Positions 3,794 through 58,913 of a stretch of DNA of 64,000 nucleotides are shown here, piece by piece. The translations under genes and the position numbers were made by a program. Location of the stretch: assembly GCA_964511965.1 (NCBI GenBank), contig CAZEGF010000006.1, positions 18,015 through 82,014 on the forward strand, written 5' to 3'. Origin of the DNA: an uncultured Gammaproteobacteria bacterium. Its GTDB lineage: Bacteria > Patescibacteriota > Microgenomatia > Levybacterales > GWA1-39-11. The stretch's first letter is position 1. The number at the start of each line of letters is the position of its first letter. Under the pieces are notes generated by a model, which worked only from the letters and a program-made list of their open reading frames with translations, did not search any database and was not told the DNA's origin.

Positions 3794-4939
<1,146 letters not shown>

Positions 4940-17450: not shown

Positions 17451-17536
17451 TTTCTTGGGGCTACCGGAAATAAAACTAGGCGGGAGAAACGAAGTGCTCT
17501 TGAAAAAGAAATCTTAAACCAAAGGAGGTGAAATAT

Positions 17537-18923: not shown

Positions 18924-21182
18924 ATGAATATTAAAAGAATACAACAATTACTGTCACTTACATTAATACTTGTTATATTTGTAGGAAAACTTGCAGTACC
19001 AATGGCTGTTCTTGCAGAAGATGCACCAACACCTCCTGCCGCACCATCTGCTCCTAGCGCACCGTCAGCACCATCTGCACCTACACCACCGGAACACAAC
19101 GACACTCCACCACCACCGCCTGCACCAAAACCACCCGTTAAAAATGACACTCCACCATCTGCACCAACACCACCACCAGCACCATCCGGTTCCACTGACG
19201 GACCAAGTGGTAACACACCAACTCAAAATCAAGAAGTAAATCCAACTACGACATCCGGAACCGGCGGAACAAATGGGAGTGGAAATGTAGGAGATACTAC
19301 TATTGGAACCGGGGAATCAAATGCTAACGGAAGCATTACAACAACGGGAAACAATAACACCGCTGTTAATGGAGGATGCAACACGTGTGCGGGTGGGAAC
19401 GGAACATCGGTTGGAAATTCGGGTAACGGGGTAGGTTCAAACAACAGCGCAACATCAAATGATAATAATTCAGCAACGACCGGCCAACACAACAGTGCAA
19501 ATGTTGCAAACAATCTTACACTTGGTAGTAATTCGGGCAACAATAACGCTTCATTTAATGTAGGTGATTCCTCAATAACAACTCAAGATGCTAACACAAC
19601 AGGAACCGTTATAACTTCTCTTAATACAAATGTAGATGGGGTTGCGGTTGCAACATTTGATGTAGCAGATAATCACACCGGAGACATTATACTTGCTCCT
19701 GGAAATGCAACAAGCAGCTGTACAAATGGATGTGGAGCAACTAACAATACTTCAAACACGGCAAACGGGGCTAATTCAACAAATAATGCATCAAACAATT
19801 CAACGAATAACAGTATTACAGACCAATCAAATAATGCTGTAATTGGAAGTACTCTTGATCTTACTGCAAACTCAGGTGATAACCAATCAAGCTTTAACAC
19901 CGGAGGAGATTCTTCAATAACAACAGGAGACGCAAATGTATCAGCAAATGTACTCACAATGGCTAACAATAATATCGCCGGAAATGTCCTTTACAACGTT
20001 GTTAATATATATGGTAACTTGGTCGGAGATATTATCCTTCCTCAATCAACAATTGACTCGCTTCTTTGCAACACTTGCGGAGGTTCATCGACTTCAAATA
20101 ATAAAAATGGTGACAATTCAACAAATACGGCTTCAAATAACACTACAAACAATTCAACTACAAATCAAAGCAATAATGCACAAATTGACAACAACATAAA
20201 TATAAATGGAACAACGGGAAATAATGACTCAAGCTACAACACGGGAGGAAATTCTGATATTCAAACAGGAGCTTCAAATGTTGTTGCAAATGTACTTAAC
20301 GTCGCAAATACTAATATTGATGGAGGAACATGGTGGTTGGTTATTGTTAACCAAGCTGGAAAATGGATTGGAAAGATTGTCGGATCACCTGACGGAGCTA
20401 ACATGGCTGGAAGTGCCGGAACAGAATTTGAAGTAGATCCAATAACAGGTGAAGTAACAGCAGTTGGTGCAAACACTTCAAATAGTGGAAATGGCGACAA
20501 TACAACAAATACAGCTTCAAACAACACTACAAATAACTCAACAACAACTCAAAGTAATGACGCTAAAATACAAAACAACTTAAATCTAACGGCAAACACA
20601 GGTGGTAATGCAACAAACTTTAATACTGGTGGAAATTCAAATATCAAAACAGGAGATGTTAATGTCATTGCAAATCTAGTCAACTTCGTCAACAACAACA
20701 TAACCGGAGGCGGTAAATTAGTTGTCACGGTTGTTAATGTATTTGGTAGCTGGATTGGAGACTTCGTAGCACCCGGACAACAAAAACAGGCACATAATAC
20801 TACTTCAGGAAGTTCAAACGGTGGAGGGTCAAATAACAACAATAATAATGGAAACTCAAATTCTGGAGGATCATCTATAGTATCCGGAGCTAAAGGAAAT
20901 GCTTTGATAACTGCAAATGTTGATAATTCCGGTAACACAAACACTTATGGCGCAGGAAGCGTTGAAGGTGCAAATACAACCGGCGGATCTACCCACAATG
21001 AGGCTACTGTTGCAAAAAGCGTAGGGCAAGACGGTTCTGCGACAGTAGCTAAAAAAACAATCGCAATAAATCTCGCATGGTTACTCCTTGCGCTTCCATT
21101 GTTTGGGATCGCAATGATTGCTAAAAAATCTTTTGTTCCTGTCCGAACACTCGCGATACGGGGAATACATCTCTTCTTGTGA
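18924..21182 (+). CDS. large secreted Asn/Thr/Gly-rich repeat protein with a Pro-rich stalk and C-terminal TM anchor
   Basis: Signal peptide, an (APS)n/PPPP linker, then about 130-aa repeats (..CNTCGG...NTGGNS.I.TGDANV.ANV..VGDIILP). C-terminal hydrophobic helix followed by KK. Confidence 0.7.
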   Translation: MNIKRIQQLLSLTLILVIFVGKLAVPMAVLAEDAPTPPAAPSAPSAPSAPSAPTPPEHNDTPPPPPAPKPPVKNDTPPSAPTPPPAPSGSTDGPSGNTPTQNQEVNPTTTSGTGGTNGSGNVGDTTIGTGESNANGSITTTGNNNTAVNGGCNTCAGGNGTSVGNSGNGVGSNNSATSNDNNSATTGQHNSANVANNLTLGSNSGNNNASFNVGDSSITTQDANTTGTVITSLNTNVDGVAVATFDVADNHTGDIILAPGNATSSCTNGCGATNNTSNTANGANSTNNASNNSTNNSITDQSNNAVIGSTLDLTANSGDNQSSFNTGGDSSITTGDANVSANVLTMANNNIAGNVLYNVVNIYGNLVGDIILPQSTIDSLLCNTCGGSSTSNNKNGDNSTNTASNNTTNNSTTNQSNNAQIDNNININGTTGNNDSSYNTGGNSDIQTGASNVVANVLNVANTNIDGGTWWLVIVNQAGKWIGKIVGSPDGANMAGSAGTEFEVDPITGEVTAVGANTSNSGNGDNTTNTASNNTTNNSTTTQSNDAKIQNNLNLTANTGGNATNFNTGGNSNIKTGDVNVIANLVNFVNNNITGGGKLVVTVVNVFGSWIGDFVAPGQQKQAHNTTSGSSNGGGSNNNNNNGNSNSGGSSIVSGAKGNALITANVDNSGNTNTYGAGSVEGANTTGGSTHNEATVAKSVGQDGSATVAKKTIAINLAWLLLALPLFGIAMIAKKSFVPVRTLAIRGIHLFL

Positions 21183-22288
21183 TACGAAAGGCGGTTATTT
21201 TCATAATCTGCCTCATTGCAAACCTCACATTAACCAATCATGTAAAAGCCGATGAGATTGTCGTTAATGTCAACGGAAACGGATCCGGATCAACTAATCA
21301 AGTACAAGTCACTTCTCAAAATACTACCCAAGTTAGTCAAAATAATGATGCAAGTGTAACAAATAATACGACTTCAAATGCAAATACCGGCAACAATAAC
21401 GCCTCAAATAATACCAATGGGAGTGCGACAATTTCAACAGGAGATGCCACTTCATCAACTGCCGTTAACAATCAAAATATTAATTCAAATGCTGCAGATA
21501 CTAATTGTGGATGCCAAAGTAGCTCTTCAGTTACAGTTTCAGGTAACGGAGCAGGTTCTAATAATTATGTAAATGGCTCAAATTCAAATTCTGCCTCCGT
21601 TAACCAAACAAATAATGCATCAATTCAAAATAACGCAACTACAAACGCCAATACCGGCTACAATGAAGCTTCTTACAATGGTAACGGTTCTACATTTATT
21701 ATGACTGGAAGCATTTACTCAACGACAAAAATAAACAACAAAAATATTAATAACAGCGCATACTTTGGTGCAACAGGTCTTGAGAGTAGCTTTTTATCTA
21801 TTTCCGGAAATGGGGACGGATCAGACAACTTAGTAGCATTTACCAACAACGTTAGCGTAGTTGTAACTAATACAAATGTAGCAACAATTAATAATAATGT
21901 AGAAAATAATTTAAATACTGGAGGAAATAAAACTCTTGGAAATTTGGGTGATGTAGCTATAGTAACCGGGGGGATCATAAATGATGTAACGGTTAATAAC
22001 GAAAATATAAATAGCAGTTTTGTAGAAGTTGTATGTGGTTGTAAAACTCCGGAATCACCGGAGCACCCAAATCCTCCATCCACTTCAACACCGGGAAGTT
22101 CAATTGTTCAGGGGTCAAGCGGTAGCTCAAGTTCAGGATCATCAAATGGAACCCCAGGAAATGTTCTTCCAGTTACCGGAAGTTCTATTCCATGGTCACT
22201 TTTTGCAACACTTGTGTTATTCTTCATGTTCCTTTCAGGGCTGTATCTGCGTTTCCATGGGGCTAATGCACCTCCATCAAGAGTTTAG
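21179..22288 (+). CDS. LPXTG-anchored Asn/Thr-rich repeat surface protein
   Basis: Signal peptide and three family repeats ending in NCGC/VCGC. The C-terminus is LPVTG, then a hydrophobic helix, then a basic tail (LYLRFHG): a sortase sorting signal. Confidence 0.75.
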   Translation: MIRKAVIFIICLIANLTLTNHVKADEIVVNVNGNGSGSTNQVQVTSQNTTQVSQNNDASVTNNTTSNANTGNNNASNNTNGSATISTGDATSSTAVNNQNINSNAADTNCGCQSSSSVTVSGNGAGSNNYVNGSNSNSASVNQTNNASIQNNATTNANTGYNEASYNGNGSTFIMTGSIYSTTKINNKNINNSAYFGATGLESSFLSISGNGDGSDNLVAFTNNVSVVVTNTNVATINNNVENNLNTGGNKTLGNLGDVAIVTGGIINDVTVNNENINSSFVEVVCGCKTPESPEHPNPPSTSTPGSSIVQGSSGSSSSGSSNGTPGNVLPVTGSSIPWSLFATLVLFFMFLSGLYLRFHGANAPPSRV

Positions 22289-22344: not shown

Positions 22345-22387
22345 TGTCATTGTGAGGAGTCCTGCGAAGTAGGACGACGAAGCAATC
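22345..22387 (+). repeat. GIY-YIG-associated repeat copy with a 16-bp internal insertion; inverted partner of 22695-22721
   Basis: TGTCATTGtGAGgagtcctgcgaagtaggacgaCGAAGCAATC. Abuts the GIY-YIG stop codon. Confidence 0.65.
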
Positions 22388-22722
22388 TAAAGTAATTCAT
22401 CATACAAATCTTTCCAATCTTTATTTTTTGTTTCAATCAAATCAATTTTTTTCTTTCTTGACCCTCCCATTATCTGTTTTTCCCGACTAATAGCTTCGTA
22501 TGGGGTCTGGAAAATTTCAAAATATACCAGCTTATGCACATTGTATTTAGAAGTAAAACTTTCAACAGCGCTATTTTTATGTTGCCAAACACGTCTTATC
22601 AAATCTTCAGTTACTCCCGTATATAAAACTTTATTGTTAAAGTTTGTAAGAATGTAAACATAATACTGTTTGTTTCTCACCAATATAGTATAAAGATTGC
22701 TTCGCTTCGCTCGCAATGACAT
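22387..22722 (-). CDS. GIY-YIG nuclease family protein
   Basis: YYVYILTNFNNKVLYTGVTEDLIRRVWQHKN is the GIY-YIG core, about 110 aa. The N-terminus (MSLRAKRSNL) is encoded by the repeat. An alternative start lies at 22743. Confidence 0.8.
   Translation of the reverse strand: MSLRAKRSNLYTILVRNKQYYVYILTNFNNKVLYTGVTEDLIRRVWQHKNSAVESFTSKYNVHKLVYFEIFQTPYEAISREKQIMGGSRKKKIDLIETKNKDWKDLYDELL
22695..22721 (-). repeat. GIY-YIG-associated repeat (reverse orientation; its reverse complement is TGTCATTGCGAGCGAAGCGAAGCAATC)
   Basis: Forms the 5' end of the GIY-YIG ORF and the upstream region of the sortase gene. Inverted relative to 22345-22387. Confidence 0.7.
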
Positions 22723-22744: not shown

Positions 22745-23302
22745 ATGAAACGAAATCTTCAAAAATGGGTTGGAAACATTTTGATCGCAATTTCCTTGCT
22801 GGGGCTTCTTTTCATTTATTACCCGGTTCTTAAGGAGTTTTTCTTTCCGCCTCATTTTACCGAAGCACAGAAAAAAAGCATTGGGTTTTCTATTGAAATC
22901 CCATCAATTAAAGTGTTCTCCCCGGTTATTGCCAATGTTGATCCATTCAACCAGCAAGAATATATTGAAAAGCTTAAAAATGGGGTAGCCCAGGCCAAAG
23001 GAACCAGTCTTCCCGGTCAAAAAGGTACTATATATATGTTCGCTCACTCATCAGATGTGCCATGGAGGATAACACGTTATAACACAGCATTTTTTAAATT
23101 AGATTTTGTTAAAAAGGGGGATAGGATCGTTTTGAGATATGAGGGTAAAGAGTATCGATATATGATTTATGATAAGAAGACTGTCTGGCCATCAGACACA
23201 AAATATTTGAAAGAAAATCAGGGGAATATATTGATTTTGCAAACGTGCACTCCGGTTGGAACTGCACTACAAAGACTATTAGTTTTTGCAAAGCCTAGTT
23301 AA
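22745..23302 (+). CDS. sortase family transpeptidase
   Basis: N-terminal TM, a His in MFAHSSD, and the catalytic LILQTCTPVG (TLxTC) motif. Adjacent to the LPVTG protein. The ORF-track start at 22697 reads through the repeat, so the ATG at 22745 is preferred. Confidence 0.8.
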   Translation: MKRNLQKWVGNILIAISLLGLLFIYYPVLKEFFFPPHFTEAQKKSIGFSIEIPSIKVFSPVIANVDPFNQQEYIEKLKNGVAQAKGTSLPGQKGTIYMFAHSSDVPWRITRYNTAFFKLDFVKKGDRIVLRYEGKEYRYMIYDKKTVWPSDTKYLKENQGNILILQTCTPVGTALQRLLVFAKPS

Positions 23303-23365
23303 TGATTAATGGTTGATGCTTGATGGTTAATTAACTATTAGTCATTTATCATTAGCGATAAATGT
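23300..23365. repeat. AT-rich imperfect palindromic TGATG-rich element directly after a stop codon (family member 1)
   Basis: TAATGATTAATGGTTGATGCTTGATGGTTAAT ... TTAACTATTAGTCATTTATCATTA. The arms are approximate reverse complements. Confidence 0.5.
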
Positions 23366-23439
23366 AGTGTATGGGGGAAGAACGGAAAACAAACTTTTCG
23401 GTTTGCTCAATTCTCCCCCCGGGTACACCTTGTCGGCGG

Positions 23440-23739
23440 TTAAGCTGTCACATTCTGTTCTTGCCGTATCAGGTCCTTGAGGGCTTCGGAGAACTCCGGT
23501 AAGTCTTGAATTGGCATTTCCCGAACGTATTCGATGGCGTTGTTAATGTCATCGATGGCCGCGTTAATGCAAGACAAAACCCATTTCCGCCTCTCTTCAG
23601 CCGAAGTTCCAGTTGGCAGAGGAGTGCCGTGGGGGGTGGCGAGGACGCGTTGGCTGTGAAGGACGTTGCTTGCCCCTTTGATTCGCGCCGCCGCGTGATC
23701 GAGTCTTTCCCACGCGTTGATGGTTTTGATCGAAGTCAC
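23440..23739 (-). CDS. hypothetical small protein (MTSIK family, GC-rich island)
   Basis: GTG start with a GAGGAGG SD 6 nt upstream. Paralogous to the 23791..24192 gene (shared MTSIKxxNA N-terminus and a W.L..NA.DD...A.E C-half). High-GC codon usage. Confidence 0.5.
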   Translation of the reverse strand: MTSIKTINAWERLDHAAARIKGASNVLHSQRVLATPHGTPLPTGTSAEERRKWVLSCINAAIDDINNAIEYVREMPIQDLPEFSEALKDLIRQEQNVTA

Positions 23740-23790
23740 TTTTTGCCTCCTCAGGCTTGCCCCTTCTACGGGGCGGAATTGGGACGAAAC

Positions 23791-24192
23791 CTAGTTCCCG
23801 TCAGATGGCGGGTTCGTGATTTCGTAGGTCTGCAGCTTGCTAGCTGGTTTCACTTGCGCAAGGCGAAAGGCTTCCGCGACTGTGCTGACACCGACGATTT
23901 GGAGTGGTCTGCGATTCCGTTGGCTGATCATGCTTTTCACCTCTTCAGAGAGAGGCGGGACTTCGCCGTCCGGGATGGACTTTATGTGTTCCATAGCGAC
24001 CCGAAGGTCGTCCATGGCGTTCATCAGGCCCAACATGAGCCATGTCCGGCTTCCGTCGGGCGTGTCGCTACCTGGGAGATCCCCAAGCTGCGATGCGATC
24101 AGGTTGGATTCCAGGGCATCGTAGATTTCACTGGCCCTGGCATTGCCTTGCCTGATCCTGTCCATTGCGTTGGTTGCTTTGATAGATGTCAC
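23791..24192 (-). CDS. hypothetical small protein (MTSIK family paralog, GC-rich island)
   Basis: GTG start with a GAGGAGG SD. Paralog of the 23440..23739 gene. Confidence 0.5.
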   Translation of the reverse strand: MTSIKATNAMDRIRQGNARASEIYDALESNLIASQLGDLPGSDTPDGSRTWLMLGLMNAMDDLRVAMEHIKSIPDGEVPPLSEEVKSMISQRNRRPLQIVGVSTVAEAFRLAQVKPASKLQTYEITNPPSDGN

Positions 24193-24447
24193 TTGTTGCC
24201 TCCTCAGGCTTGCCCCACTTAAATGGGAATGGTCGTAATTGTCACCGGTTACAGCCGGGTGAGAAATATGGTCGTAAGGATCAAGCCCAGGATCAGAAAC
24301 GCTAAACGCGCACCACCTCCTAGTTCCTTGATCATAGAGTTGAGAATTAGGAACACTCCCAACAAGCCAATGAACCAGGTATAAATGGTTGCCTCCTCAG
24401 GCCGATTTGGCCGCGTTGTACGCGGTATAGATCGTGAATTCAGATGT

Positions 24448-24789
24448 TTAGGGCTGTTGAGAAGACTCTCCCTCAGAAGGTACTTTTCCGAGTGATTGGG
24501 CTATGATGTAGATTTGCAACTTGCTCCTGCCTTCAGCATTACGCTTCAGGACTTCCGGCATGAGGACAATGTCCTCTTCGTTGGGGTCAATCAACTCAAT
24601 TTCGGCAAGCCGCCCGTGCAATTGCGCGTACAGCTTGGCTTTGAAGTTGTAAAGCCCCATCAGATCCGCTTTTGACATTGAGAGTACTGCTTCAGCAGTC
24701 TTGACGCCGTTTCGCATCAGGTTGTTGTAGACGCGATTTGTGAAACCGATCACACTTAAAGGAGTTTCCCCCTCAAGATGGATTGCCAT
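24448..24789 (-). CDS. hypothetical helix-hairpin-helix DNA-binding protein (RNAP alpha-CTD-like)
   Basis: LSVIGFTNRVYNNLMRNGVKTAEAVLSMSKADLMGLYNFKAKLYAQL resembles an HhH/alpha-CTD fold. ATG start with a GAGGAGG SD. High GC. Confidence 0.4.
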   Translation of the reverse strand: MAIHLEGETPLSVIGFTNRVYNNLMRNGVKTAEAVLSMSKADLMGLYNFKAKLYAQLHGRLAEIELIDPNEEDIVLMPEVLKRNAEGRSKLQIYIIAQSLGKVPSEGESSQQP

Positions 24790-24820
24790 GAACTTGTCCT
24801 CCTCAGGCGTTTTTGATTAA

Positions 24821-24867
24821 GTTTTCGCTCGCACAACCTCGTCAGACGGGGCTCTGCGAGCGAAAAC
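24821..24867. promoter_or_regulatory. 13-bp perfect inverted repeat with a 21-bp spacer (GTTTTCGCTCGCA-N21-TGCGAGCGAAAAC); candidate operator or recombination site
   Basis: Lies upstream of the first island gene on the minus strand. No U-tract on either strand, so it is unlikely to be a terminator. Confidence 0.4.
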
Positions 24868-24999
24868 TTGTTACAAGAATGTGATTTCAAGGTGCTCATT
24901 TTTTCCCAAACCCGCGAGTTTTGAGCTTATCAAAACATTAAGGAGAAGAATAAAAAATGTGGGAATATTATAAGACTGTACAGAGTTGAAGTCAAAAAC

Positions 25000-25025
25000 A
25001 AACCCCCTTGTGTCCAAGGGGGTTT
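25000..25025 (-). terminator. rho-independent terminator (AAACCCCCTTG-tgtc-CAAGGGGGTTT); the T-tract is on the minus strand
   Basis: Perfect 11-bp stem. Minus-strand tail TTTGTTTTTG. About 30 nt downstream of the stop of the 25051 gene. Confidence 0.7.
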
Positions 25026-25050
25026 GAATTGGAATCCGCCAGTTGGCGAA

Positions 25051-25650
25051 CTAGTTAGTGTTTGTAGATCCACCAACTTCTACTCCAACTGAGTTTGATG
25101 CTGGATTAGTGGTAACTGTGTTACCTCCTCCAACATTAAAACTTTGGCTGTTTCCACCTGTATTGGCACTAGACCATACATTTGTATTTACCGCAGTTGT
25201 ATTTGTTTGACTAACAACCGTAGAATTGCTGTTAATCACTACAGCTTTTGACGAGCTAAATGCTCCTCCACCTGTGACGGTTACTGTATTTGAGTTACTA
25301 TCACAACCACAATTTGATGTGTTTGTGTTAGTTCCTCCTGTGACTGATACACCAACGATGTTGGTAGCAGCGCCTGTGGTGATGCTGTTTGAACCACCAT
25401 TTCCTACATTAAAGCTTTGTTTGTTTTTACCGGTATTAGCGGACAAACCAGCCCATGTATTTACAGCGGTTGTATTATCTTGAACAGTAGTTGATGATGA
25501 AATGTTTTTAACTATAGCTTTTGTGTAGCTAAAAGAACCATTTCCGGTAACAGTAACAGTATTTGTTGCTGCAAATGATGCTGGGGCTACTACGCTCACC
25601 ATCATTGTACCGATTGCAACTGCTGATGCGATTTTTTGTTTGATATTCAT
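25051..25650 (-). CDS. secreted Asn/Thr-rich repeat protein (2 repeats, each ending in NCGCDSNSN)
   Basis: Signal peptide MNIKQKIASAVAIGTMMVSVVAPASFA. Same family as 17537-22288. Its 5' UTR AAGGAGGTGAAATATATG is identical to that of the 17537 gene. Confidence 0.65.
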   Translation of the reverse strand: MNIKQKIASAVAIGTMMVSVVAPASFAATNTVTVTGNGSFSYTKAIVKNISSSTTVQDNTTAVNTWAGLSANTGKNKQSFNVGNGGSNSITTGAATNIVGVSVTGGTNTNTSNCGCDSNSNTVTVTGGGAFSSSKAVVINSNSTVVSQTNTTAVNTNVWSSANTGGNSQSFNVGGGNTVTTNPASNSVGVEVGGSTNTN

Positions 25651-25926
25651 ATATTTCACCTCCTTTTTATTGGGATACTCCTGCCGAACCGAATGATGAA
25701 AAAAACCACAAAAAAATCCCTCGATAAACTCAGGATTTTAATTTTTGGCAGTTTATATTCATATCAGGCAGGTCAAAAGGAAATGAATTCAGGGTTCTAA
25801 GGGGCAACGTAGAACGTTAATGTTAGTTATTATATGCTAGTGTCCAGCAGGTCTGTCAAGACTAACAATCTATATATTTATATTATCAAAGATATCATCT
25901 TATATTTATTTTTTGAGGTCGCTTCC

Positions 25927-57587: not shown

Positions 57588-57616
57588 TTGACTTTCCCCT
57601 CAAATTAGTGTATAAT
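57588..57616 (+). promoter_or_regulatory. near-consensus sigma70 promoter TTGACT-N17-TATAAT
   Basis: gtaTTGACTttcccctcaaattagtgTATAATgcaaccc, about 60 nt upstream of the GC-rich DUF262-like gene. Confidence 0.55.
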
Positions 57617-57677
57617 GCAACCCGCATCTCGTCAGAAATGATGAGGTAGCTCATTGACATGGCTAGGCTTACTTTGA

Positions 57678-58787
57678 GTGCCAGCCAAGGAGATCCCGGT
57701 GTCCGTTCGTCTTACCCACTTCGCCCTGGACGAGTTCGAATGCGCAACTGTGTTGCGTGGCGTACTCGATCCTGACACTCTGGAGGACATCCTAGTGGAT
57801 GTTTACCAGAGGGAAGTCCTCCACCAGGAGGGAAAGAAGCACAGCCTCATCGAGGCTTTGCGCAACGGCGCCCGCGTTCCCGATGTTGAAATCGGCATGC
57901 GCGGAGACAACTTCTCCATCGAGGGAGAAGGAGAGGGCTTCATCGTCCTCAACGACCCGGCCTACATCGTCGACGGCCTGCAGCGCATCAGCTCCGGTAT
58001 CGCTGTGATGAGAGAGGGCATTCGCCCTCACATCGGAGCGACTATCCACTTCAACACAGATAAGGTGTGGGAGAAGGATCGGTTCAAGACGCTGAATCAG
58101 GACCGCGTTCGTGTCAGCACGAACATCTTGCTCCGCAACTTGGGAGAGGAGAACGCCGCAATAGCGGTTTTGCTCCAACTCACCAGGTCGGATAAGGCGT
58201 TCGCCATGAACGGTCGTGTTTGCTGGAATCAGCAGATGGCTCGCAGCGAGCTCATCACCGCCCTCACCTTTGCGAAGGTGATTGGGAGGCTTCACATGCA
58301 CGTGGGTCCGACCGGCAACAGCCAGGTCGACCTGCTCGCTGATGGTCTCCAGACGGTAATGAATGCCGTTGGCAAGCAGGTTTTCAAGGACAACATCAAG
58401 ACGTTCTTCGACGTCATCGACAGGATGTACGGTGTCAAGCGCGTAACCTTTACGCGTGGGGCGGTGTACATGAGGGGGTCCTTCCTCCTTGCCTTGGCGA
58501 AGTTGTTCTCGAACCACTTGGAGTTCTGGAAGGACGAGAAGCGCTTCTTCGTTGAGGCGCCACTCGTACGGAAGTTGTCCACCTTCCCCATCGGAGATCC
58601 TCATGTCATCTCCCTTGCCTCCTCCGGAGGCAAGGCGATCGACCTGTTGTACCTCCTGATGGTGGAACACGTGAACAGCGGCAAGCGCACGAAGCGTCTG
58701 ACAGCACGTAACTACGTGCCGTTGTCCTCGGAAGTGGACGATGATGCTGATGACGGCGACAACAATCCAGAAGAGCCGGCTGCCTAG
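57678..58787 (+). CDS. DUF262 / ParB-like nuclease-fold protein with a DGxQR motif (GmrSD N-domain / DndB-like relative); GC-rich, likely acquired
   Basis: DVYQREV...HSLIEALRNGARVPDVEI...AYIVDGLQRISSG matches the DUF262 pattern (QR..W...LidSi..g.piP.i...iDGQQR). Clearly higher GC than the flanks. GTG start. Confidence 0.55.
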   Translation: MPAKEIPVSVRLTHFALDEFECATVLRGVLDPDTLEDILVDVYQREVLHQEGKKHSLIEALRNGARVPDVEIGMRGDNFSIEGEGEGFIVLNDPAYIVDGLQRISSGIAVMREGIRPHIGATIHFNTDKVWEKDRFKTLNQDRVRVSTNILLRNLGEENAAIAVLLQLTRSDKAFAMNGRVCWNQQMARSELITALTFAKVIGRLHMHVGPTGNSQVDLLADGLQTVMNAVGKQVFKDNIKTFFDVIDRMYGVKRVTFTRGAVYMRGSFLLALAKLFSNHLEFWKDEKRFFVEAPLVRKLSTFPIGDPHVISLASSGGKAIDLLYLLMVEHVNSGKRTKRLTARNYVPLSSEVDDDADDGDNNPEEPAA

Positions 58788-58871
58788 TCACTTAGTAGGT
58801 TTGTGAGTATAACCTGATGAACCAGTGTATCTGAATAAGACGCGCTGGGGGGTCGTAAACTCTCACCAATG

Positions 58872-58913
58872 GCCCCGCCTGCGCGAAAGCAAAGGCGGGG
58901 CTTTCTCGTTTTG
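58872..58913 (+). terminator. rho-independent terminator GCCCCGCCT-(12 nt)-AGGCGGGGC then TTTCTCGTTTT
   Basis: 9-bp GC-rich stem and a T-rich tail, 85 nt after the stop of the DUF262-like gene. Confidence 0.7.

Follow-up and report, generated by a model that had tools for sequence, protein, structure and literature searches.

How does a run of tiny, foreign-looking genes come to stand at one point of an AT-rich bacterial chromosome? The question is raised by a 64,000-nucleotide stretch of contig CAZEGF010000006.1 (assembly GCA_964511965.1, positions 18,015 to 82,014), which was analysed as a whole and is called here the window. In 300-nt sliding segments its guanine plus cytosine (GC) content climbs from 0.37-0.38 (positions 23,000-23,450) to 0.54-0.58 (23,450-24,200), remains between 0.46 and 0.52 as far as about 24,950 and beyond that is back at about 0.39, while the background, counted per kilobase across the window, is 0.31-0.44, a second patch at 57.6-58.9 kb excepted. 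The GC-rich block (the island) is filled by four open reading frames (ORFs) of 113, 45, 133 and 99 amino acids (aa). An earlier reading made from the letters alone (the sequence-only reading) had noticed the abrupt rise in GC, the position of all four ORFs on the minus strand and the GTG starts of two of them (those of 133 and 99 aa), all of which we could verify, and had taken the island for a recently acquired module. Comparison with relatives leads to a different answer: the island is but one allele of a hypervariable array of gene cassettes, specific to this lineage, that occupies a fixed chromosomal slot. This is the firmest part of the explanation proposed below.

The relatives were found through homologues of the island proteins (the two MTSIK proteins, called after their first residues, and the 113-aa protein, which resembles the C-terminal domain of the alpha subunit of RNA polymerase, alpha-CTD), through scans of genomes and metagenomes for the hairpin of the island's leader, and through two partial MTSIK relatives. 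The slot lies between the gene of a 200-aa secreted protein with NTN repeats, which stands by nusA and infB, and a sortase gene of convergent orientation, after which comes a small GIY-YIG gene. Nine different arrays were found in it, with two to four small genes each. The window array consists of the alpha-CTD gene, the gene of a 45-aa peptide with two transmembrane segments (2-TM), and the genes of the 133-aa and 99-aa MTSIK proteins (MTSIK133 and MTSIK99). L001 carries an alpha-CTD gene, a 51-aa zinc ribbon and a 2-TM peptide of 53 aa; L010 a transmembrane (TM) protein of 100 aa, an alpha-CTD gene and a 163-aa cassette; L013 an alpha-CTD gene and a TM/DUF4177-like protein of 113 aa; L018 a DUF4177-like protein of 66 aa and then the same 113-aa gene as L013; L019 an alpha-CTD gene and a lipoprotein-like protein of 146 aa. 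In L016 a 98-aa TM protein is followed by a 122-aa MTSIK protein and a further hydrophobic ORF, at which the contig ends; L027 together with L026 has a 98-aa TM protein, a 74-aa protein and a 144-aa MTSIK protein (MTSIK144); and L028 has a fragment of a phage-type phosphoadenosine phosphosulfate (PAPS) reductase, a 110-aa protein and a truncated MTSIK protein of 42 aa. The alpha-CTD gene is thus absent from L016, L018 and L027, and was not seen in the truncated L028 contig. The flanks of the relatives are 76-86% identical to those of the window, and between L013 and L018 the flanks agree at 98-99%. Three further hits of the hairpin-pattern scan (L017, L021 and L023) were discarded as unrelated high-GC chance matches.

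Comparison of the arrays shows that at the junction and end sequences whole genes have been replaced, others have been inserted or have changed places, and some have been fused. The identity of L013 and L018 extends as far as GCCTGAGG, where they diverge completely (alpha-CTD gene in one, 66-aa gene in the other), and identity resumes at TCACGACC-hairpin-CCTGAGGAGGGCAAGTTCATG. L001 and L010 have in common a block of 91% identity that begins precisely at CCTGAGGAGGGCAC and is lost some 20 nt ahead of the stop codon; this block is cassette 1 in L001 and cassette 2 in L010, where it is enclosed by two copies of the junction motif. The synonymous divergence (dS) between these two arrays is 0.20 in the alpha-CTD cassette, as against 1.51 in the sortase gene and 0.86 in the NTN-repeat gene, so the cassette moved between the lineages long after their split. 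In all cassette comparisons the ratio of nonsynonymous to synonymous divergence (dN/dS) was 0.18-0.46, compared with 0.06-0.19 in the flanking genes; the cassettes compared are real genes under relaxed purifying selection. Not every breakpoint is at a gene start. The 42-aa MTSIK fragment of L028 is nearly identical to the window from a point within the gene onward (two mismatches in the last 95 nt or so) and shows diverged homology before that point; such a mid-gene switch of identity is the signature that a recombination tract would leave.

The junction motif, (CAAAAC-N-G)CCTGAGGAGG(S)CA, precedes 20 of the 24 cassette starts, within 34 nt of the start codon, and is degenerate or absent at the other four. 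Within the window CCTGAGGAGG occurs four times, once ahead of each island ORF (0.07 copies are expected, and none of 100 shuffled sequences contained four), which agrees with the earlier observation of a common strong Shine-Dalgarno (SD) sequence. The accompanying claim that such signals are peculiar to the island genes holds for the exact 10-mer, which is found nowhere else in the window, but not for strong SDs in general: although 31 of the 43 window ORFs of at least 150 aa (about 70%) lack any SD-like motif, GGAGG-type SDs stand ahead of at least three native genes (at 17528, 25051 and 56294). The native strong SDs read AAAGGAGGTGA, hence the conservation of the junction motif exceeds what complementarity to rRNA explains. 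Several junctions have in addition a TTCACGA box and a hairpin of 4-7 bp upstream. The intergenic spacers are 37-58 nt long and their 4-7 bp hairpins are barely more stable than those of shuffled sequences (z between -0.6 and -2.2); the hairpin of copy 2 is changed on both strands in L001, to TCGCG...CGCGA. In L010 the 100-aa membrane-protein gene, inserted in front of the alpha-CTD gene, has as its stop codon the TGA within CCTGAGG (4095-4105) and so ends inside the junction motif of the next cassette.

What stays constant is the frame around the genes (Table 1). A promoter of the layout TTGACT/TTGATT-17-TATAAT/TATACT was recognised by eye in L001, L010, L013, L016 and L018, i.e. in five of the six other aligned arrays; it was not located in L019, whose leader holds extra sequence. 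The region has one promoter-like site, on the array strand and immediately upstream of the array. The support for this promoter comes from its conserved position and not from the number of sites, which in the promoter scan was no higher than in shuffled sequence. The flank and the leader together form a block that is 76-98% identical among the arrays, up to the first CCTGAGG. The inverted repeat that had been reported for the upstream end was confirmed and exceeds the length described, with 25-nt arms that are 88% complementary and contain a perfect core of 13 bp. In the arrays it makes a hairpin of 22-24 bp, whose RNA fold in the window has an energy of -34.3 kcal/mol (z = -7.8). The distal stem occurs in two sequence versions, both paired, and eight pairs show compensatory double changes, a covariation that rests on essentially two sequence types. 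Outside the hairpin the leader is not GC-rich.

At the other end a 3' block is conserved at 74-93% in the window, L001, L013, L018, L019, L026 and L028, irrespective of the cassette that precedes it. Its hairpin (-32.6 kcal/mol, z -5.65) has an inner stem that differs between lineages yet stays paired, thus covaries, and it is probably a terminator common to the array and the convergent sortase gene. In three arrays the last gene enters this block (window 23,440-23,456, L013 1560-1583, L028 860-875), as a result of which three unrelated proteins, MTSIK99, the 113-aa DUF4177-like protein and the 42-aa fragment, all end in NVTA-stop, fused in frame.

Table 1. Positions of the array, its frame and its cassettes in the window
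Feature	Position	Strand	Remarks
Terminator hairpin of the upstream NTN-repeat gene	24999-25026		promoter directly after
Sigma-70-type promoter, TTGACT-17-TATAAT	24967..24995	-	11 of 12 consensus matches; reads into the array
Untranslated leader, about 160 nt, from promoter to first ribosome-binding motif	24808..24966	-	leaders of six arrays align throughout
Leader hairpin, invariant 13-bp base AGTTTTCGCTCGC / GCGAGCGAAAACT and lineage-variable distal stem	24819..24869	-	arms 24819-24843 and 24845-24869
Junction/ribosome-binding motif CCTGAGGAGG, copy 1, at the leader end, before the alpha-CTD gene	24798..24807	-	
Cassette 1, free-standing alpha-CTD paralogue of 113 aa with two-helix C-terminal extension ELIDPNEEDIVLMPEVLKRNAEG	24448..24789	-	ATG start
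Junction motif, copy 2	24392..24401	-	TTCACGA box and small hairpin CCGCG-tacaa-CGCGG upstream
Cassette 2, hydrophobic two-helix peptide of 45 aa	24249..24386	-	ATT start inferred
Junction motif, copy 3, GGGGCAAGCCTGAGGAGGCAAC	24199..24208	-	
Cassette 3, MTSIK protein of 133 aa, mostly helical	23791..24192	-	GTG start
Junction motif, copy 4	23746..23755	-	
Cassette 4, MTSIK paralogue of 99 aa	23440..23739	-	GTG start; terminal NVTA-stop codons within the 3' block
Conserved 3' end block AAGAATGTGACAGCTTAA ... GGTGTACCCGGGGGGAG ... CTTCCCCCATACACTA	23365..23456	-	long hairpin 23366-23429

In composition, codon usage and start signals the island is foreign to its genome, as had been suspected from the letters. 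The GC content at third codon positions (GC3) of the island genes is 0.57-0.67, compared with 0.21-0.37 in 41 of the 43 ORFs with 150 aa or more; the GC-rich exceptions are an ORF antisense to the island and the gene of the second GC-rich patch. The antisense ORF (238 aa, 23506..24222, plus strand) spans both MTSIK genes and exists because the region is GC-rich. In the public gene call of L002 (8568-9161) a 197-aa wrong-strand part of it has replaced the real genes, the contig being otherwise identical. Independent assemblies, at least eight in number, from ENA, Logan and JGI samples (L002-L009 and L020) hold the same island sequence at 99.9-100% identity, which excludes a mis-join or chimeric assembly. 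Rfam gave no match in the whole 64-kb window at its gathering thresholds, and in E-value mode a single one (E=0.74), on the terminator of the upstream gene; the idea that the GC-rich block is a known structured RNA was dropped on this result. No tRNA gene was found in the window, hence there is no tRNA-linked integration site in it, and no direct repeats beyond chance flank the island, the best pair across its borders (D8; 21 nt, 71% identity) being taken as chance.

The 113-aa protein is a genuine alpha-CTD homologue, both by family score and by fold. It scores 25.3 bits against the Pfam family RNA_pol_A_CTD (PF03118; gathering cut-off 23.8), which confirms the assignment made without databases. 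A profile of six alleles matched the alpha-CTD structures 7l7b/1z3e in the PDB at E=1e-9 over residues 9-66, and the AlphaFold 2 (AF2) model, with a mean predicted local distance difference test score (pLDDT) of 86.7, superposes in Foldseek on alpha-CTD chains at 1.1-1.4 Å (7vpd_S: target-normalised TM-score 0.83, root-mean-square deviation 1.3 Å). The protein shares with the RNA polymerase alpha subunit the helix-hairpin-helix fold and the sequence of the C-terminal domain, but it has neither the N-terminal domain nor the linker, and carries a highly conserved 45-residue extension of its own. As it lacks the N-terminal domain of alpha, it cannot be a subunit of the polymerase. Residues 67-103 form a two-helix extension without structural match and are the most conserved part of the protein, with ELIDPNEEDIVLMPEVLKRNAEG invariant. 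In the alpha-CTD of E. coli the DNA is contacted by R265, N268, G296, K298 and S299. Judged by eye from the alignments, the equivalents of R265, N268 and K298 are kept in all alleles, and those of G296 and S299 are kept in L001, L010 and L019 and replaced by K and L in the window allele (G296K, S299L). The dN/dS values between alleles are 0.18-0.33. The protein could bind UP-element-like DNA or the partners of alpha-CTD, and so modulate transcription or act as a decoy that titrates transcription factors. Mycobacterium phage Mithril and uncultured Caudovirales have annotated proteins of 105-150 aa that consist of an alpha-CTD only; a tblastn search of phages with the island protein gave no homologue at the sequence level. 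The earlier idea of a phage regulator is partly supported: such proteins are a recurrent class of phage genes, but the island matches no phage family and no phage DNA.

The two MTSIK proteins are paralogues, as had been proposed (BLASTP E=5e-15, 32% identity over 93 aa). Among 5.8 billion proteins the alpha-CTD-like protein has five homologues and the MTSIK proteins two, all at the same locus in the same clade. An exhaustive HMMER search of 1.84 billion representatives with the MTSIK family returned only the same-locus members and weak matches to the repeats of poly-HAMP chemoreceptors. The latter resemblance amounts to 5-13 bits per repeat, summed, over the motif N-x-x-L-D-x-[VL] ... E-[YH]-[IV]-x-x-[IM]-x-x-G-[DE]-[VL]-P; there is no direct Pfam match to HAMP_2 (PF18947), and the profile reaches the chemoreceptors through summed weak repeats alone. 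We take this as a resemblance and do not file the MTSIK proteins as a HAMP family. Pfam, PHROGs and PADLOC gave no family match for them either. The AF2 model of MTSIK133 is a helical hairpin of low confidence (pLDDT 61.6), with which the fold search found no match. Alleles of MTSIK133 are present in L016 (92% DNA identity) and, as a chimera, in L027, with dN/dS values of 0.21-0.40. The L027 gene (782-1233, P0013) encodes MTSIK144, the N-terminal two-thirds of which are homologous to MTSIK133; the C-terminal tail, FNNDREGLDQVQPHPL, has its homologue in the last part of the unrelated 163-aa cassette of L010.

For the 45-aa peptide the sequence-only reading had seen no canonical start codon, and this was correct. 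The frame is open from the SD, and an ATT located 5 nt after GGAGG is the sole start in range; the first canonical one, a TTG at 24365, would give 38 aa and lies about 27 nt from the SD. Homologues were not found beyond identical or 99%-identical copies, for which reason both the start codon and the coding status of this cassette are putative.

Where the GC-rich cargo comes from can be answered in part. The GC3 of the cassettes extends from 0.30 (the 66-aa DUF4177-like gene of L018) to 0.91 (the 110-aa gene of L028), the others lying at 0.43-0.71 and the flanks at 0.23-0.35. Such heterogeneity within one locus points to several donors and speaks against a mutational bias acting on the locus as a whole. 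The first 600 nt of L028 have a GC content of 64-75%; its PAPS-reductase fragment is 49.6% identical to a protein of Pseudoalteromonas phage KB12-38 and resembles genes of P2/186-type phages, and its best database relatives (57-64% identity) are on contigs of 68-69% GC, beside an SNF2 helicase. A high-GC, phage-like source is plausible for some of the cargo. Homologues of the window cassettes outside the clade were found neither in 5.8 billion proteins nor in 1.84 billion representatives, BLAST of the island DNA against phages and plasmids gave no match, and viral contigs, scanned with the alpha-CTD and MTSIK profiles, with both proteins of L028 and with the patterns of leader hairpin, 3' block and junction motif, yielded chance matches or none. 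Of the donors that had been suggested, an Actinobacteria host passing genes to its symbiont has no support, the homologues occurring only at this locus in this clade. An external pool of high-GC genes is plausible in view of the L028 array, which holds cargo of 65-75% GC including the phage-type PAPS reductase, but no donor was identified.

Taking anatomy and exchange mechanism together, we consider it fairly probable that the locus is an expression and exchange platform that works without an integrase and resembles integrons or the PeSL cassettes of phages. We are less sure of a recombinase-independent exchange than of the cassette array as such, and any specific function assigned to the array is a guess. 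According to this scheme a strong sigma-70 promoter and a leader with a stable hairpin would drive one co-directional operon, closed by the conserved hairpin, in which each gene would bring its own portable sequence for translation initiation and joining. Exchange would be the work of the cell's general recombination, with incoming DNA crossing over into the resident array either at the junctions (10-25 nt) or in the longer leader and 3' blocks. General recombination is inferred because no recombinase is encoded nearby (the recombinase families of Pfam had no match within 8 kb on either side in two genomes, nor among 20 mid-size ORFs of the window, all housekeeping) and because some tracts end inside genes. 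The junction motif would also provide GC-rich foreign messages with a strong SD in a genome that mostly has none. The cargo probably consists of accessory or conflict genes from a phage-like pool, and the TM, 2-TM and lipoprotein-like cassettes may have roles at the cell envelope. A more specific version, in which the slot is a landing pad of a small low-GC genome (possibly of the candidate phyla radiation, CPR/Patescibacteria), equipped with promoter, leader hairpin and terminator, a recombinase-independent analogue of the integron that captures foreign genes from the environment, high-GC ones of hosts or phages included, through a portable motif of about 22 nt that at once makes them expressible, with a free alpha-CTD decoy acting on transcription as recurrent cargo, is tentative and, in our judgement, rather doubtful.

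It must be noted that several points weigh against the platform explanation. All the evidence is comparative and comes from sequences. That breakpoints coincide with gene starts could in part be due to selection for intact genes and not to a preferred site of recombination, and a recombinase may be encoded elsewhere in the genome, beyond the 64-kb window. As the relatives were found through features of the island itself, empty sites or more distant versions would be missed. L028 is a contig of 902 nt and could in principle be chimeric, although its similarity to the window decays gradually and does not break off at a k-mer. No family match supports a function. Finally, the alpha-CTD alleles hold a GC3 of 0.55-0.62 even at a dS of about 1.2, which residence in a chromosome of 37% GC does not explain; a GC-rich reservoir would be needed, and the viral, phage and plasmid searches for one were negative. 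This suggests that the alpha-CTD family diversifies in a reservoir richer in GC.

It is useful to compare the locus with three known systems. In integrons the cassettes end in attC, an imperfect palindrome of 57-141 bp with RYYYAAC / GTTRRRY cores. Chromosomal or sedentary integrons share with the locus a fixed platform with a single promoter, downstream of which small, mostly promoterless and mostly orphan cassettes stand in the same direction; their composition is unlike that of the host and their content varies between close relatives. The two features that define integrons are missing, however, as there is no IntI within 8 kb or among the 20 mid-size ORFs, and no attC, with no pairs of its core sites in the junctions; nor is there an attI. 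The repeat is at the 5' end of each cassette and includes the ribosome-binding site, and an array has just 2-4 genes. The rAID-1 loci of Bacteroidales, recombinase-associated arrays of acquired interbacterial defence genes, also have small genes, a skewed GC content and repetitive sequence between the genes; they are defined by a XerD-like recombinase at their 5' side (with more than 44% identity to that of Bacteroidales), many of their genes are homologues of known immunity genes, and their GC skew is downward (bioRxiv 10.1101/471110). Our locus likewise is a co-directional array in which the GC is skewed and motifs recur between the genes, but the skew is upward, the gene 5' of the array encodes the 200-aa NTN-repeat secreted protein and not a XerD-like recombinase, and immunity genes are not recognisable: the cassettes gave no significant Pfam or PADLOC match, although no search dedicated to immunity genes was made. 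In the hyperplastic regions of T4-type phages, PeSL cassettes are short regulatory motifs with stem-loops that flank small ORFan genes (PMC2839356, PMC4122927); insertions, deletions and replacements between close relatives arise there by recombination at the motifs, without a dedicated recombinase (PMC2839356). These cassettes are the closest mechanistic analogue of the array, as in both systems close relatives (here L013/L018 and L001/L010) differ in motif-bounded segments. A PeSL unit, however, consists of promoter and terminator and belongs to a phage genome, whereas the unit described here is an SD sequence within one chromosomal operon, with at most a small hairpin upstream of it and conserved hairpins in the leader and at the end. 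PeSL-type systems can be recognised by circular single-cassette DNAs that arise from motif-motif exchange.

Several other explanations have to be weighed against the platform. The cassettes could be captured site-specifically, in the manner of integrons or rAID arrays, by a recombinase that is encoded outside the window and recognises CCTGAGG(AGG) or the leader hairpin. The promoter-proximal, co-directional array with its skewed GC and repeated junctions would fit, the more so as rAID-1 arrays likewise have skewed GC and repetitive intergenic sequence (10.1101/471110); CCTNAGG is an interrupted palindrome, breakpoints fall within the 7-10 nt motif, and the L010 cassette lies between two motif copies. 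The search of the mid-size ORFs and of the 8 kb around the array in two genomes found neither tyrosine nor serine recombinases, long imperfect palindromes of the attC kind are missing (the junction hairpins have 4-7 bp), one junction in six has a degenerate motif or none, and exchange tracts that end inside genes are typical of homologous recombination. Site-specific capture is in our opinion unlikely, while deserving to be kept in mind.

We find it improbable that the array is the early region (a 'moron' block) of a decayed prophage or satellite that has lost its integrase and structural genes, the conserved ends being the former ends of the element. Small orphan genes, a strong promoter, strong SDs, the alpha-CTD proteins known in phages and the PAPS reductase of L028 would all agree with such an origin. 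No significant PHROG match and no DNA or protein match to phages or viral contigs was obtained, however, the island is not framed by direct repeats beyond chance, and cassettes still turn over between strains as close as L013 and L018, which is unlike decay. Hardly better placed, and in fact slightly worse, is a single recent transfer, not yet ameliorated, whose donor would be a high-GC organism (a host among the Actinobacteria or a phage of it). The GC and GC3 far above those of the genome, and the 66-69% GC of the L028 cargo and its nearest homologues, speak for it; but every relative found, with flanks as low as 76% in identity, has the same syntenic slot with its conserved frame and varying content, the divergence of the alpha-CTD alleles has reached a dS of 0.8-1.2 while they stayed at this locus, and none of the window cassettes has a homologue outside the clade. 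The single recent module of the sequence-only reading is contradicted by the synteny.

We give little credit to the view that the island is a toxin-antitoxin, abortive-infection or immunity module with a membrane peptide and soluble partners under an alpha-CTD-like regulator. The genes are small and co-transcribed, include 2-TM peptides and vary between strains as defence genes do, and the second GC-rich islet of the window holds a GmrSD_N/DUF262-like gene. But PHROGs and PADLOC gave nothing significant for the four island proteins (best PADLOC E-values 0.02-0.045), Pfam showed no toxin, antitoxin or defence family among them, and no gene pair is kept from array to array; as the alpha-CTD gene is missing from L016, L018 and L027, no fixed pairing of toxin and antidote exists. 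Local GC-biased gene conversion at a recombination hotspot, without foreign origin, is the least probable explanation. In its favour, the locus recombines often and deeply diverged alpha-CTD alleles keep a high GC3; but a bias of the whole locus should leave no cassette untouched, and they range in GC3 from 0.30 to 0.91, while the leader apart from its hairpin is not GC-rich. Of the interpretation put forward from the letters, what remains is that the island is foreign-looking and accessory and that a high-GC external pool is plausible; the recent single acquisition and the toxin-antitoxin module do not survive, and the origin from Actinobacteria has no support.

Some observations on the neighbourhood may be added. 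The second islet (57,590-58,900; GC 0.55-0.57, GC3 0.76) lies between thymidine-phosphorylase-like and YceG/MltG genes, upstream of rpoB. It has one ORF (57678..58787, more likely starting from the GTG at 57699 after AAGGAG) with a weak match to GmrSD_N/DUF262 (E=0.0027) and a DGLQR motif, a perfect TTGACT-17-TATAAT promoter (57588-57616), a GC-rich terminator-like hairpin at about 58,872-58,900, and no CCTGAGGAGG. The GIY-YIG gene by the sortase gene is part of a mini-element (22,345-22,721) bounded by the inverted repeats TGTCATTGTGAG...CGAAGCAATCT / AGATTGCTTCG...CTCGCAATGACA. A gene-less copy of its ends (about 73 nt), similar to a miniature inverted-repeat transposable element, is inserted in the loop of the leader hairpin of L027 (about 40-130), and the N-termini of the GIY-YIG protein and of the long sortase (TTG start, MLRFARND...) are translated inverted repeats. 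Asn/Thr/Ser-rich repeat proteins with signal peptides are encoded at 17,528, 21,179-22,288 and 25,051-25,659, one of them with an LPVTG sortase signal; two of these genes share the identical start region AAAGGAGGTGAAATATATG, and the 202-aa gene has an internal duplication of 273 nt (D3/D5). The carriers L018 and L019 are metagenome-assembled genomes that represent species in GTDB; the label Gammaproteobacteria is hard to reconcile with a GC content of 37%, sortase/LPXTG proteins, an IF-2 of 485 aa, a NusA of 336 aa and an RpoB of 1155 aa.

If the platform explanation is true, gene-cassette platforms need no dedicated integrase, and a promoter together with a short shared translation-initiation motif may suffice for foreign genes to be acquired, expressed and shuffled. 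The principle of the PeSL cassettes would then extend to bacterial chromosomes, and the locus would represent a third architecture beside integrons and rAID arrays. For this uncultivated low-GC lineage it marks a locus of about 1-1.5 kb at which genes flow at the level of strains, two arrays being different at 98-99% flank identity. It also yields a set of tiny orphan proteins, among them a standalone alpha-CTD with a conserved novel extension, whose functions are probably related to conflicts with phages or with neighbours.

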